From an uncultured Methanosarcinales archaeon (lineage in GTDB: Archaea > Nanobdellota > Nanobdellia > Woesearchaeales > GW2011-AR9): a stretch of 64,000 bases of DNA. The stretch covers positions 1-64,000 of the forward strand of contig CAZCGN010000001.1 of NCBI GenBank assembly GCA_964498285.1, in the 5' to 3' direction. The position numbers are program-made. Position 1 is the stretch's first letter, and every line of letters starts with the position of its first letter. Below, piece after piece: positions 21,001 through 27,000 of this stretch.

Positions 21001-24000
21001 CATTTTTCAAACGATTACTTAAAAAATTCTCACTCGCAAATCCATTTGCGCGTAAGTCACATGTAAAGTTAGGTCTTTACGGACCACCAAACGGTGGAAA
21101 ATCGACACTTGCAAACAGAGTTTGTGAGGATTGGCTTGGGGAGAAGATGTCAACTGTCTCCCACATTGCACATGAAACACGAGAAATTGTGATTAAAGAA
21201 CAAGTTAATATCAAAAACGATAAAGGAAAAGAGCTTACATTCTCTTTAGTAGATACCCCAGGTATTTCTACACGTATTGATTATGAAGATTTTTTGAAAC
21301 GTGGTATGAAAAAAACGGAAGCAAAGAAGCGAGCAAAAGAAGCTACTAAAGGAGTTATTGATTCAATAAAGTGGTTAGATAATATGGATAGTGTTGTTGT
21401 AGTTCTTGATTCAACTAAAGATCCATACTCACAAGTGAACATTACAATTATTGGAAATCTGCAAGCACGAAATATTCCGGTCTTAATTGTTGCAAACAAG
21501 GTTGATTTGAAAAAATCAAACATTGATTTAATCAAAGCTGCCTTTCCACAGTACGAAGTTGTCGGAATTAGTGCAAAGTATGGTAAATACATAGACGAGT
21601 TTTACGAAAAACTCATCGAATTTGCACGCTAAAAGTGTTGCGGCATATTTAAAAAGGTAAAAGAATTACTTAAAAACTTACATAAGAGGTTGAAAATAGG
21701 TTAATGGTTACATTTCAATTTGTCCCGTATCATGAGATGGAGTATTTAAGCTCTGCAAAACGCATTCATAAACTGATGAATATTGTGAAGAACGATAAGA
21801 TTGTTATCATGGCAGGACGTCTTAAAAAGCACGAAGAAGCAGATCTTATTGAACTTACAATGGAAGAAATTGGTCCTTCTTTTTCGGGTGTTGAGCTAAG
21901 TGTTATCTATCCTGATAATGATCAGCATCAGGGAATTAAAAGACTCAAAAGTTCTGTTGTAAACATGATCATGGGAGACAGACAAGGGTTTACTATTGTA
22001 GGTCCAGCATCTGTTGTCAAAAAGATTGTTAAAAACCCTAACAAGATTGAACTTTTCACAAAAGAAGGTCGCACAAAGCGAAGAACAAAACAAAGAAAAT
22101 AGACTATGCCACATCAATGCGTTCGTTGCAGTAAGCTCTATCCGGATGGAGCACAAGAAATTCTAAAGGGATGTAACTGTGGTGCTCGCCTTTTTTTCTT
22201 TGTGAAAAAATCGCAAATTGAAGAAGGAAAACGAATTCTCACCAAGTTATCTACTGAAGATAAAGTTCAAATTGAAGAAGACATTAGAGATCTTGCAAAC
22301 GTGAAGAGTGATTCTAATAAACCGGTTGTCTTAGATTTGGAAAGTATTCGTGTTCTTAAACCTGGTCAGTATGAGTTAGATCTTGTACACTTGTTCAAAA
22401 ACGATCCGTTAGTCTTCAAGTTAGAAGACGGTAAGTACATGATTGACCTGCCACAGGCGTTTAAAAGTAACGAAAAGTAAGAATTCTTATTTGTATTGTA
22501 GAAAAACTGCCACACCATACTCTTCTGTAAATCTTCTGCCTGCTCCTTGAAACTTTTCATTTACAACATAACTGTGGCCCCATCCTGGGATTCTTGCACC
22601 ATTTTCTCTGCGCAAAGTTATGCTTAAACAAGTTCCATCATCATTTACACTATCTAGAAAACGTGCTGAATCTAAAGAAACTGTCTCTGGAAGAGCGCAA
22701 GAAAGATCAGAAAGAAGAAGGAGAACCGGTTCATCACCAAGTGAGCGTACTGAGCCATTTACTTCCATCAAGAAAAGAGGCATAAGACTGTTTATTAAGC
22801 TTGCGACACACTTACAACTTTTTTGTAACTGCTTTATCACTTACAATAGCACTATTACCAGTGGAATCAGTAAGAATTATTTTAAGTTTATCACGACCTA
22901 AGATAACATTATTTAATTTTTTAATCAAATTCTTTGCTTTCTTTTTAGCATCCTTATCGTCTTCAGCGTCAGCCGCCCCTTGGATCACTTTTTTAACACG
23001 TTCAAGTACACCTTCAACGTTTGTTACATAACCGATTGAAGCTGGCCCAGGCTCTATCTCAATTATTCGTGGAATTTTGAGTGTTGCTTCACCAGATTTG
23101 ATGACTTTAACAGCTAAATCCTCTTCTCCAGTTACTTCAAATGTGTATTGCATCGGCTGCTTTTTTTCAGCAACTTCTAAATCGGCCTTATGATCACCAC
23201 ACTCTGTGCACGTCATAGAAAATATGAACACTCTCCCAAAAAAAGGAACGTCAATCTCGTCTTCTCTAAGAGTGCACGCCTTTTTACCACACATAACACA
23301 GGGTTGATTTTTCATCTCTGACATACTAAGAGAAGAAGCAAGTTTGCTTTAAAAATGTTTTGAACTAGAAAATTATAGGGAAGTTGAAGGTCTTGAATCA
23401 ACCGGGGTTCTTCCTACAAGGGCACTTAATGAGGGAATCTTGTATCCCTCAACTGCAGATTCTATCTCTTCAAGAGAACGGGCTTTAAAATCCCCCACAG
23501 AATAATCAACAAAAGTTGCCTTACCAGGGTTTCCTTGAATACGTACACGCACTCTATCATTAGATCTCATTACTGTTTTGCCAAGCAAAAGAGATCTTGA
23601 AAAATCGCGTTCAGCGGAAAGACGGTTAAATGTGAGTGAAAAACCTTCCCTATTGCCACCGAAACTTTCAAGGTACTCTACTCGTGAATCGAGATCTGCA
23701 TACAGTCCAGCCATTTCCATATTCTTGTGCACAAAATGGGTTGTTTATAAGCCTTTCGAACAAAGATTCTTGGAAGTAAGACAAAAACTTAATAAAGCGC
23801 TTCGTAAAACGCAATTGGTAGATGCACCAGTAGTATAATGGTTAGTATCCGGGCCTTCCATAAGGTCTGTAGCCTATGCTACTCACTTTGATGTGAGCCT
23901 GTGATCCGGGAAAGATCTTTGGACTTGATCTTCGGATATTCGAATCCCGGCTGGTGCATTTAAGTCCTTTTTGTTCCTGGGGAGAATTATCCTCAGGAAC

Positions 24001-27000
24001 TTTTCATGATCTTTCTTTAGAATTGAAATATGATAGATATCTACTCGATTAGATCTTTTCTCTTTGTACAGTCTCACGGAAGGTATTATTTCCAGCTTAA
24101 TTAGAAAATCAACTATGTTATCTTTCAGACCAGTTGAAACTGTAGCAAAACTGATTCTATTACTGGAGAGGTAACCATCACTATCTAAACTTCCACGAAT
24201 GAATCCTTTTATAAAATCCACTGAATGATCTTTATTTTTCAGTCTAACAGAATATGTTTTAGGACGATCGGGATCCCATTCAAGATATTCTCTAATAAAC
24301 TTATGAATGTTCTTAGAGTAATAACAAAGATTAATGGCATTTTTTCTTGTAAACACCATTGGTTCTTTTCCAAAAAGCTTAACAAGGACATTTTCAATTA
24401 AATCATGTACAAATATTTCTTCTGTTGAATTAAAATGAAGATATGTGCGGTAATGATAATTAGTTGTTTTGAATAATGAACCATCACCGGCAAAAAGGCC
24501 TAAAAATTCACCTATCAACTCATCATTATTAAGAACAATATTAATCGGTTCAAACGTCCTTCCCTTTATTTTCTTAAAATGATAATAAATAGTCGTTTTA
24601 CCCCGAGCTAGAATTTGGCTTATTTGATTCAGAGATTTACCTTCTTCAACTAAAGATTTAAGCCGAACAAGTTCTTTGGGTAAGATTTTTTTCATTTTCT
24701 TCACATAGTTAGAAAATGTATATAAATTCTATCCGCACTTGTCCAGTGGGTTTAGTGTTCAAATCCCGGCTGGTGCATATTTTCTTATTATGCTGCAGTT
24801 CGAGAGTTTGGTTTTCGGGGCACCATGGATGCAAAAGGAGAGCCTTCAAGAAGAGGATTTTTACGTTTTGGAACAGTAAACGTCCCTAGCTTACTAAAAA
24901 GAAGTGGCTTTTGAATGAAAACATCATATCCTACTTCTCCACCCATCTCTTCTAAAAACGTCGAAAATCCAAGCATATCAAAAGTGTCAGGATGTCGAGA
25001 AAAATATTCTAAAAAAGCATGAGATGTAAACACTCCATCATATGCAGCTTCGTCACGCCTAGCTGCTGCTACAATTGCAGTATTTGCAGGAAATAAATCA
25101 GAGTGACGATCAACAAACGAACCTGAATGACACGCATCTAGTGCTACTAATGTTTTCCCCCGAGTTACTGTTAGTGTTTCATAGAGCCCATCAGCACTTA
25201 AAAAACCATCATGTAAAGCAACTTTCTCTTCTGTTCCATGACCCGCGAAGTATATTATGTTGCGTGATCCCCGAGTTGAGCCTGCTTGCATCTCTTTTAG
25301 TTTTCTCCCCAGATTCGAGCTGGTTGCACGGGCATCAAAAAGAATTTCCCCAACCTTAAATCCCCTGTGAGAAAGCTCTTCTGCAACACCCAATAAATCT
25401 CTATACACTTCAGGGATATCGCCATCTGTGTTATTTCCAACAATAATTGCATAGTGATTTGGACTTGTTTCAACTTTTGCCACTTGTAGAACATATTCTG
25501 GTCCAAGATGGATTACATCCCCTTCTCCAAACGGCCTAGGGTTTGAATCAATAGGTACACCATTGAGATATGTTCTATAAAAAGTAGTTAAATCAAAAAT
25601 AGTTGGAGCATATGGTGTGGAAGCTATGACCCCCGCATGATGTCCATGAACAAATCTTGGAGTTCCCTGAATTTGAACCATTTGTTCAAGCTTTTCAAAA
25701 CCTTTCGGTTTCTTATTCTGGGTTCTCCTAACTAACGAATCTGAGGAACCGAGGCAAACACCACCCTCTATAGTAAAAGAATTTTTCTTCTGTTGGTCAT
25801 AAAACGTTACAATGTGTCCCATTCATTATCTACAGAAAACACCATTTATAAACATTTCTCAATTTTATCACTGAAAGGGAGTTAATTCATTCTAAGAACA
25901 ACAACCCAACCATAATTGCTATTCCTGCAACCATTGCAACAATGTGCCACAAGGATTCACGAAATCTACAGTCTTTATGCAATTCAGGTATTAGATTTGA
26001 GCCTGCAATGTACAAGAATCCTCCGGCTGCAACAGGCAAGATAAAGGCAACGAATGCTTCACCTCGGACACCTAGTAAGAGCCCAATTATTGCGCCAACT
26101 ATTGCAACAGCTGCTGTAAGAAAATTATAAAACAGAGCTTTTCCTTTCGACATTCCTGAATAGACCAAAACTCCAAAATCAGCAACCTCTTGTGGAACCT
26201 CATGTAAAATAACTGCAACAGTTGTTGCAATTCCAGCAGGAATGCTTACAAGATAACTTCCTGCAATCACAAGTCCATCCAAAAGGTTGTGTAGAGCATC
26301 CCCCGTGATATTGATTGGCGCAATGTGTTTTGGGTGATGATCTTTATGCCTGTGTGCAAGCTCAACCCCATGACCATGCTCATGTTTGTGATGAATGAAT
26401 TTTTCTAAGATAAAAAAGAGCAAAACTCCTAATAAGACTAGAAGAGAAATTTGAAGTGTAAAGGCTCCTGCTTCTTCTACTGCCTCCGGTAGAAGATGTA
26501 GTAATGCTCCTCCAAGCAAAGTTCCCGCTGAGATACTTACAAGAATCATAAGCATGTTTTGGAGGGATTTTTCTTTGAGGGCAAGTGTAAAGATACCAAC
26601 TAATGAGACTAATGATACAATAATAACACTCACAATAGTATAAAAAATCACGCTAAACATAAAATTGAGAAATTCTAAGAACTATATTAATGTGTTGGCT
26701 AACCATTTGAAAAGTATTCACTTCTCAGAGGAACAAAAAGTATATAAAGAAAAAGAAGTAACTACTCTCTTGCTCGCAAGGGTCGTAAGAAGAGGTTTAG
26801 CTTAGAAAATCCTTAAGGTTCGGTCTCTAAGACATGGTAAAGCCTGTCTCGAAAGACCTTGTTGAGCACGTTTTTCTATCTGGATTTCTTGGGATATAGA
26901 ACCTCAAACACAAGACCATGCCTAGCATCCGTTTTACCTAAAGAAAATGTATCTTTATGATTGAGGACTATTTTCCCACCTGGTGTAACACCCTCCGAAT

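Follow-up and report, generated by a model that had tools for sequence, protein, structure and literature searches.

The gene g00034 of an uncultured archaeon, which overlaps the 3′ end of a tRNA-Gly(UCC) gene, is best explained as a free-standing homing element, predicted to cut the intact tRNA gene, to install an intron-bearing replacement end as its immunity and to be timed by the repair regulon of the cell. We give this reading a probability of about two in three. The locus lies in a window of 64,000 nucleotides (the whole stretch of DNA that was analysed) and is made up of the following parts.

23824-23958, plus strand: tRNA-Gly(UCC) gene (Rfam RF00005 match, 31.9 bits with a gathering score of 29, E 2.8e-4)
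23824..23860, plus strand: tRNA exon 1, positions 1-37 (Rfam match; spliced 72-nt cloverleaf)
23861..23895, plus strand: anticodon-loop intron (37/38), 35 nt (spliced cloverleaf)
23896..23910, plus strand: tRNA exon 2, A38-G53, with the anticodon stem 3′ strand, variable loop and T-stem 5′ strand (spliced cloverleaf)
23911..23938, plus strand: T-arm intron (53/54), 28 nt (sequence; helix pairing scored)
23939..23958, plus strand: tRNA exon 3, T54-A73, the working 3′ end (repeat match; spliced cloverleaf)
23883..24704, minus strand: g00034, free-standing HTH and double-motif LAGLIDADG gene (LAGLIDADG_3, E 3e-9; HTH_38, a weak match at E 1.5e-3)
24719..24726, minus strand: TATA-like box TTTATATA, predicted nuclease promoter (sequence; spacing to the box as at repair genes)
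24737..24748, minus strand: repair-gene box CACTGGACAAGT (12-mer common to repair genes)
24758..24778, plus strand: spare tRNA 3′ end, T54-A73 differing at one T-loop position, with a T-rich tract after it (repeat match)

The nuclease, its tRNA gene and its promoter

The genome-wide survey's note had placed two free-standing LAGLIDADG genes, g00034 and g00557, against un-annotated tRNA-Gly(UCC) and tRNA-Trp genes, which is borne out by the Rfam match at the former and by overlaps of 76 bp and 11 bp, respectively. Two introns interrupt tRNA-Gly(UCC), at 37/38 and 53/54; once 23861-23895 and 23911-23938 are removed, a 72-nt cloverleaf is left, which ARAGORN calls as tRNA-Gly(tcc). With default settings the program did not detect the unspliced tRNA at 23824-23958, and its permissive mode returned noise. 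A second Gly(tcc) call, at C1:311295, was rejected, since the sequence there reads as a protein-coding frame, which we take to be GAPDH-like. Read by eye, the 53/54 intron forms a bulge-helix-bulge (BHB) in which TCCG of the exon pairs with CGGA of the intron, with GGA and TAT as bulges and a hairpin AAGATC/GATCTT; the minimum-energy fold contains the hairpin and does not show the full BHB. Introns resembling the one at 37/38 are also found in relatives lacking the nuclease gene (loci L045, L057 and L085).

The product of g00034 counts 273 aa from a GTG start, or 270 aa from the ATG at 24695, with the HTH in its N-terminal part (~aa 10-47), and further on the motifs FLGLFAGDG (D74) and IRGSLDSDG (D176), and K149 between them. 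Its sequence is that of a double-motif LAGLIDADG protein, in which two predicted helices each end in an acidic metal ligand. Both aspartates are invariant in an 81-sequence alignment, and among relatives D74 is kept in 112/112 and D176 in 112/113 (one E), with K or R at position 149 in all 113. In the AlphaFold model (pLDDT 93) the protein appears as two I-DmoI-like alpha-beta-beta-alpha-beta-beta-alpha domains, whose best solved-structure matches in Foldseek are an intein nuclease and I-DmoI (E ~2e-10); profile matches were to PI-PfuI and I-DmoI. With I-DmoI and the archaeal intein nucleases PI-PfuI and TliVMA, the closest solved structures, it shares the predicted build of a double-motif monomer with both acidic metal ligands, whereas they are encoded within an rRNA intron or an intein and g00034 lies outside the intron and has an extra N-terminal HTH. 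The gene is neither intron- nor intein-encoded: the introns measure only 28-35 nt, and the reading frame is separate, antisense, has its own promoter and contains no intein domain. In this regard, the earlier description of "intron-less" homing elements is right for the nuclease, but the replacement tRNA end that belongs to the unit seems to contain a short BHB intron. It had also been pointed out that the C-terminus is read from the tRNA antisense. The last ~25 codons do overlap the tRNA, but this looks incidental, and a functional role for the tail was rejected, as relatives use three frames or stop earlier and the tail is modelled at pLDDT ~60. In close relatives, the nuclease ends in a conserved PRN, encoded by the bases that follow exon 3.

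Each gene was said to have its own box promoter, and the identical 12-mer CACTGGACAAGT indeed stands 22 nt ahead of a TATA at both. The same box is found upstream of the radA operon, uvrA, uvrB, nre, hef, polB, xerA and a PD-(D/E)XK nuclease gene, as well as of a LAGLIDADG ORF embedded in the 23S rRNA gene, and one boxed site at C1:301948 is accompanied by short ORFs only. The 12-mer with at most one mismatch plus a TATA occurs 11 times in the genome and 0-1 times in each of eight simulated genomes; a looser test (≤2 mismatches) gave 17 occurrences, with 6-12 in shuffles, which counts against the homing reading. A palindromic version (CACT-N5-AGTG) was dropped after 58 unspecific matches. Among relatives, and at ≤2 mismatches, the box lies within 900 nt upstream of radA in 8/9 cases, and 22 of 41 loci related to g00034 lack it. 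Judging from the genes that share the box, the nuclease promoter is presumably damage-inducible, and a repair-gene promoter motif of Woesearchaeota-like archaea would have been acquired by three homing-nuclease genes of one genome.

Filled, intron-only and empty alleles

Three allele states exist at one syntenic locus. In the genus g75, where the neighbours are shared, genome G097 is filled, with its repeat at +899-918, G101 and G104 have the intron only, and G100, G110 and G112 have neither gene nor intron, so that filled and empty alleles coexist at a conserved locus among relatives, the comparison being one between species. Presence is likewise patchy across the host family, in which the gene occupies 6 of 50 Gly(UCC) loci and is absent from 44; the 53/54 intron is found in 6/6 loci with the gene and in 10/44 without it (Fisher p 5e-4, for kin that are not independent). 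Broken copies, with stops or split frames, occur in four genomes (G022, G057, G026 and G218). Four runs available only as contigs revealed no empty allele, excised form, joint or variant, a sampling that leaves room for rare empty alleles. An ORF-less intron is found beside a free-standing nuclease with which it is associated across genomes, as in the pairs known from collaborative or trans homing, of which F-CphI with the psbA intron is reportedly an example.

The 53/54 intron, on this association, probably marks where the element begins on the left and would provide its immunity. Exon 2 probably forms part of the nuclease's target, and exon 3 was probably delivered by the element as the working 3′ end. 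Following DNA damage, the nuclease promoter would be switched on alongside RadA, Hef, Nre and UvrAB, and the intact allele would be cut in or near the variable loop and T-arm, at a site that should extend beyond roughly position 44 in the 5′ direction. Break repair with a filled allele as template would then copy the intron, T54-A73, the gene and its promoter, leaving the old tRNA end as a downstream repeat that possibly serves as a second homology arm. The host splicing endonuclease, for which a motif scan gave a candidate EndA gene at C1:560739-561500 of this genome, would excise the intron and keep the tRNA functional. Finally, should the gene decay later or the two repeats recombine, a tRNA with the intron alone would be left.

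A less probable explanation, to which we would give roughly one chance in six, retains the homing element but makes the intron a hitchhiker or an earlier resident that is merely co-converted, immunity arising from base changes or from the insertion itself, which would split a site reaching from the tRNA end into the flank. Of the 49 gene-bearing Gly(UCC) loci, 36 have the 53/54 intron; the other 13 speak for this explanation and against the intron as shield. So do the ten family loci with an intron and no gene, which could be older than the gene's arrival, and an intron-less locus with an apparent ~30-nt relic of the gene's 3′ end (G064) also counts against the shield. At L098 and L119 an intact 28-nt T-arm/acceptor copy is kept beside the gene, a further point for the hitchhiker, and because it persists there the T-arm alone cannot be the cut site. 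Comparison of phylogenetically independent pairs for exclusion by an intron or a mutated site gave the predicted direction in 3-4, the opposite in 0 and no difference in 5-6 (p 0.125-0.25, not significant). On the other hand, the family contrast of 6/6 with 10/44 speaks against a passive intron, and the uninterrupted TCCGGG|TTC, present in 26 of 34 alleles with neither gene nor intron, was found in none of the 49 working alleles with the gene, being interrupted in 22 and changed in 27; the intron-less cases are scattered over the tree, with at least nine changes. Moreover, sister proteins sit at opposite ends of one tRNA type, and the flanks downstream of the tRNA vary between genomes and would make a poor conserved target.

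The spare tRNA end and comparable systems

The repeat of the tRNA 3′ end reported to flank g00034 is present, but it measures 21 nt with one mismatch (23939-23959 and 24758-24778) rather than 22, the second copy lying beyond the nuclease promoter. This copy is likely the displaced original end and the right border of the element. Spare ends were detected in 11 of 41 related loci (0/200 shuffles each) and are lacking in the other 30. The three longest, at L098, L119 and L184, read across 53/54 without an intron, while the working ends at the same loci have one. In this data set, whose empty alleles all come from other species, the displaced end may be the native one and the working end foreign.

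Such a direct repeat is also the classic scar of integration, and the unit might instead be the shrunken remnant of an integrase-delivered element (the repeats being attL/attR) or a cassette moved by the host XerA, its nuclease being retained, under induction by damage, to protect the cell by cutting any incoming element with intact tRNA-like attachment sites. We consider this improbable, and somewhat more so than a hitchhiking intron. It can draw on the box common to xerA and on an insertion in tRNA-Thr(GGU) of Caldiarchaeum subterraneum, which the portion of Sugahara et al. 2012 available to us reads, for one locus, as an attP x attB integration, with delivery of the intron by attP (PMC3293823). 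As described there, the element is bordered on one side by a functional tRNA that has an additional intron and on the other by a residual piece of tRNA, and intron gain from a mobile element was proposed, the intron protecting the site; it differs in having a putative recombinase, whereas here the LAGLIDADG nuclease is the sole gene and the pattern extends over many tRNA types (PMC3293823). As in tRNA-integrating elements of the SSV1/pNOB8 and Caldiarchaeum type, a tRNA-end repeat marks both borders, but between the repeats we find the LAGLIDADG ORF alone and no recombinase gene, whole or split, and in the filled g75 locus, too, neither an integrase nor any further cargo is present. We rejected the idea that XerA is the integrase of the element: the tyrosine recombinase whose gene has the box is the host XerA, encoded on another contig. 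PADLOC gave no match for the g00034 protein. The nuclease clade predicts the tRNA type, and patchy presence with broken copies fits a selfish cycle. Viral contigs yielded no close relative, only three matches of 25-27% identity inside long ORFs without a tRNA, and phage records no match, so that no vehicle was found.

A domesticated, non-cutting DNA- or RNA-binding protein, be it a WhiA-like regulator of tRNA genes or a maturase of the T-arm intron, would account for the HTH domain, the regulated promoter and the presence of WhiA among the weaker fold matches (E 3.7e-6), and is nonetheless very improbable given the essentially invariant catalytic aspartates, ten genomes with the intron and no adjacent gene, the absence of the gene from 44 of 50 family loci and a candidate splicing endonuclease in the genome. 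Domesticated LAGLIDADG regulators of the WhiA type have lost the catalytic acids, have a C-terminal HTH and are stable single-copy genes, whereas g00034 keeps the acids, has its HTH at the N-terminus and is patchily present.

Fungal mitochondria offer a close parallel to the homing element, to judge from the parts consulted of a paper on mobile ORFs in Allomyces macrogynus atp6 and Glomus atp6, atp9, cox2 and nad3 (PMC3630166). There, a free-standing endonuclease gene comes with a replacement gene end, ORF-less alleles are cut and the native end is displaced downstream as a duplicate; here the likeness is known from sequence, the nuclease lying between two gene-end copies (the 21-nt repeat, and the 11 of 41 related loci). 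The present case differs from what is described there in that it concerns a chromosomal tRNA gene of an archaeon, of which ~20-30 nt are replaced, including a BHB intron of the kind spliced by proteins. The nuclease gene runs antisense from a promoter of its own, and 5′-end versions occur. In phage intronless and collaborative homing, as far as described in the sections seen (PMC2988022), a free-standing nuclease mobilises its own gene together with an adjacent intron, with MobE and with T4 SegB, which acts in the tRNA gene region, as examples; those systems use GIY-YIG, HNH or EndoVII-type enzymes, group I introns and phage genomes, cut at a distance of hundreds of bases from the nuclease gene, and lack a duplicated gene end.

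Relatives and the second gene

Of 80 metagenome loci retrieved, some of them duplicates, 77 could be evaluated, and in 74 of these a relative of the nuclease adjoins a tRNA at its 3′ or 5′ end, with 21 of 1224 gene ends of this genome within 150 nt of a tRNA as background; long, intein-like matches have no adjacent tRNA (4/4, plus 3/3 viral). The survey's note had named tRNA 3′ ends as the target. Mobility and aim at tRNA genes are upheld, but 5′ ends are used about as often, and since sister proteins also change ends on one tRNA type, the sequence of the tRNA gene itself appears to be what is targeted. Protein clades track the tRNA type: with labels assigned by eye and FastTree trees throughout, the 113-protein tree requires 30 label changes as against at least 52 in 200 shuffles, or 26 as against at least 41 without the Gly-3′ group.

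A family profile run against the ORFs of this genome gave g00034 and g00557 as the sole matches above threshold.

C1:528502-528649: tRNA-Trp, overlapped 11 bp by g00557 (Trp read by eye from the CCA anticodon arm)
C1:528639-529271, minus strand: g00557, second LAGLIDADG gene (family profile match)

At this tRNA-Trp both the T-arm intron and the spare end are missing, which counts against the intron as shield and favours a hitchhiking one. For g00557-type loci, one of them from the unpublished genome G233, the earlier figure of 6 of 29 with a tRNA end was an undercount: an intron-tolerant detector places a tRNA at the gene end in 20/29 (background 6/500 gene ends), and the detector, Rfam and reading by eye together do so in 26 of 27 evaluable loci. 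Rfam alone gave 7/29, plus three weak matches to the tmRNA model, its low yield being due to multiple introns in those tRNAs.

Altogether, the data support genes that are free-standing, catalytically intact-looking, mobile and aimed at tRNA genes, with a box common to repair genes. They would be one route by which oddly placed archaeal tRNA introns arrive, and the locus gives the question of intron gain an enzyme to work with and a gene as its target, besides a candidate for the shield and, as substrate, the empty allele. More tentatively, at somewhat less than even odds, DPANN archaea may harbour an entire class of such homing elements, ~0.9 kb in size and with a separate nuclease clade for each tRNA type, that have joined a DNA-damage regulon common to the lineage. 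These would cut intact tRNA genes while recombination is on, put replacement ends in place whose introns act as a shield, cross between species with the displaced end travelling along as the second homology arm, and leave non-canonical introns behind after loss; if so, such elements would be a main route for the arrival of these introns. The literature, with subscription papers thinly covered and main texts only, gave no description of the elements or of the box. In the part seen of a 2026 preprint on Asgard tRNAs, three routes of intron gain were tested, none of them general, and neither "LAGLIDADG" nor "homing" appears (10.64898/2026.10.13.758758).

The relatives amount to a sizeable natural collection of compact nucleases, in which every member has its own tRNA sequence as partner. 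Identities among the nucleases (51-60%) do not follow those of RadA (61-81%), which hints at horizontal transfer. Contigs of one run from another study span the junction regions of both g00034 and g00557, with zero differing letters.

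The tRNA-Gly(UCC) gene and its antisense nuclease

The free-standing LAGLIDADG gene g00034, encoded neither in an intron nor in an intein, runs antisense into a tRNA-Gly(UCC) gene that is matched by the Rfam tRNA model with 31.9 bits and for which ARAGORN made no call. The parts of the locus are the following:

23824-23958, tRNA-Gly(UCC) gene
23861-23895, tRNA intron 1, at position 37/38, 35 nt
23911-23938, tRNA intron 2, at position 53/54, 28 nt
23883-24704, antisense to the tRNA, nuclease ORF of 273 codons with LAGLIDADG_3 and weak HTH matches
24758-24778, repeat of T54-A73 (spare end), 21 nt with one mismatch, directly past the nuclease promoter

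Removal of both introns leaves a 72-nt cloverleaf, and the ORF overlaps the tRNA by 76 bp. A bulge-helix-bulge was read by eye at the 53/54 intron, for which the computed minimum-energy fold is a hairpin only. Contigs of a run from another study cover both junction regions with zero differences. Around the locus, a GTPase gene and the origin-associated oapB and oapC genes (20991-22480) precede the tRNA by 1.3 kb, the order oapB-oapC-ZPR1-tRNA-Gly being conserved across four genomes of g75, a genus of the host family. An FHA and caspase-like (C13/C14 peptidase) gene (24788-25822) ends 10 nt past the spare end, and a second FHA gene (26876-27319) follows 1 kb beyond it.

The protein is predicted to be an active nuclease, because its key residues are conserved and its modelled fold resembles that of I-DmoI. 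In an alignment of 113 homologues, D74 is found in 112 of 112 aligned rows, D176 in 112 of 113 (the remaining one has E), and position 149 is K or R in every homologue. The best structural matches of the AlphaFold model (pLDDT 93) are an intein nuclease and I-DmoI, and a profile search of solved structures returned PI-PfuI and I-DmoI. The C-terminal tail read from the tRNA antisense was considered as a meaningful part and is taken as incidental, since among relatives it occurs in three different frames or is absent, and model confidence there is low.

Placement of related genes at tRNA ends

Only two genes in the whole genome match the family profile above threshold, g00034 and g00557 (C1:528639-529271). 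The latter overlaps by 11 bp a tRNA identified by eye as Trp, which has neither T-arm intron nor spare end. Among the 29 best order-level loci of the g00557 type, one of them from an unpublished genome (G233), an intron-tolerant detector found a tRNA at 20, versus 6 of 500 random gene ends; after adding Rfam and reading by eye, the count rose to 26 of 27 evaluable loci. In metagenomes (80 loci, the best of 219, duplicates among them), a tRNA lies at the 3′ end of the nuclease gene in 74 (one partly visible) and is absent in 3, and the other 3 stop too early to evaluate. Most relatives with a name carry the label Woesearchaeota or Nanoarchaeota, so the host presumably falls there too. No tRNA was found beside the long intein-like matches.

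Two placements recur, tail-to-tail at the tRNA 3′ end or on the same strand ahead of the 5′ end. On a FastTree tree of 113 proteins, tRNA type and end, labelled by eye, change 30 times, versus at least 52 in 200 shuffles. Sister proteins occupy opposite ends of one tRNA type (Trp, Gly-UCC, Gly-CCC and Arg), which suggests that the protein itself selects the tRNA gene. Nuclease identity is out of step with RadA identity among relatives, a hint that the gene may have moved horizontally; no viral vehicle was found among viral contigs and phage records. In two genomes (G100, G075), the 5′ end of this tRNA-Gly(UCC) gene is immediately preceded, on its own strand, by a different LAGLIDADG gene, and the tRNA has a D-loop intron (loci L241 and L046). 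A third arrangement, at L222:1034-2140, runs from a complete tRNA through a same-strand gene to a T-arm/acceptor fragment.

Intron, spare end and a possible homing cycle

Searching 114 family genomes by pattern yielded 50 Gly(UCC) genes that could be read; the 53/54 intron is present in 6/6 with an adjoining nuclease gene versus 10/44 without (two of these ten identical; p 5e-4, kin being non-independent). Three allele states share common neighbours in g75:

G097, filled (tRNA with adjoining nuclease gene), with the repeat at a distance of about 900 nt
G101 and G104, 53/54 intron only
G100, G110 and G112, neither gene nor intron

Across 49 distinct gene-bearing Gly(UCC) loci, the intron is present in 36 and absent from 13, the latter dispersed over the tree. 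The uninterrupted TCCGGG|TTC junction occurs in none of the 49, versus 26 of 34 alleles that lack both gene and intron. Counted as independent pairs, 3-4 favour exclusion of the intact site by the element, none oppose it and 5-6 show no difference (p 0.125-0.25). At locus L233 of G064, which lacks both the nuclease gene and a T-arm intron, the tRNA 3′ end is directly followed by some 30 nt similar, in antisense, to the 3′ end of that gene with its PRN codons; a simple scheme needs intron loss to account for it.

Spare ends, scored as a 13-nt tail with at most one mismatch, were found in 11 of 41 loci with sufficient sequence (8 were too short to score) and in none of 200 shuffles of each. Those of L098 and L119, and that of L184 with two mismatches, cross 53/54 without an intron beside intron-bearing working copies, so the old allele was likely intron-less and the incoming end intron-bearing. 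Because an intact T-arm/acceptor copy persists next to the gene, the recognition site must extend 5′ of about position 44, or the enzymes of those loci are inactive. Four loci (L096, L101, L109, L130) have an additional T-loop intron at about 59/60; several spare ends (L097, L104, L091) follow a stretch similar to the last part of an intron of this kind, which suggests that the displaced allele may have carried another intron.

With a probability of roughly two in three, we favour a homing cycle that supplies a replacement, intron-bearing tRNA end. The induced nuclease would cut the intact tRNA gene; RadA-dependent repair off a filled allele would copy the intron together with the new 3′ end, the gene and its promoter; the displaced end would persist as the repeat; host EndA would splice out the intron; and gene loss could leave the intron alone behind. 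A homing element with the intron as a mere hitchhiker appears unlikely, an integrase remnant retained as a guard somewhat more so, and a domesticated binder very unlikely. The favoured cycle would combine the manner of fungal mitochondrial mORFs, which bring in a replacement gene end (PMC3630166), with phage collaborative homing (PMC2988022); the Caldiarchaeum tRNA-Thr insertion is similar, but the present locus has no recombinase (PMC3293823). LAGLIDADG genes are contained in archaeal rRNA group I introns (PMC6125680) and CPR rRNA operons (PMC8172020), and the parts seen of both papers describe no tRNA-end elements. The literature searched, most subscription journals and supplements being outside its scope, gave no description of the nuclease/tRNA-end arrangement or of the promoter box. 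What the locus adds is a series of filled, intron-only and empty alleles, together with spare ends that lack the intron, a count of site exclusion and the common repair box.

A promoter box shared with repair genes

The 12-mer box CACTGGACAAGT stands 22 nt ahead of the TATA element at both tRNA-linked nuclease genes. With at most one mismatch and a TATA element, it occurs at 11 genomic sites versus 0-1 per simulated genome (n=8); a looser version (17 sites versus 6-12) is barely above expectation. Behind the top sites lie a small ORF with radA, uvrA, uvrB, nre, hef, polB, a PD-(D/E)XK nuclease gene and xerA. Two of the boxed genes outside the tRNA loci are:

C1:412505-412837, 110-aa ORF, first gene of the boxed radA operon, no Pfam or NCBIfam match
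C3:1205-1834 (L231), LAGLIDADG_1 ORF within the 23S rRNA gene, box and TATA at C3:1302

In 8 of 9 relatives the box stands ahead of the radA operon, and it precedes 19 of 41 related nuclease genes. That the nuclease genes belong to a repair regulon is well supported; damage may induce the promoter, through either an activator or a repressor. The LAGLIDADG_1 ORF, having the same box and TATA, is a third homing-nuclease gene with a repair promoter in this genome. Two further sites with box and TATA, C1:301948 and C4:19998, have no identifiable gene behind them and might drive a small protein, an RNA or the box regulator.
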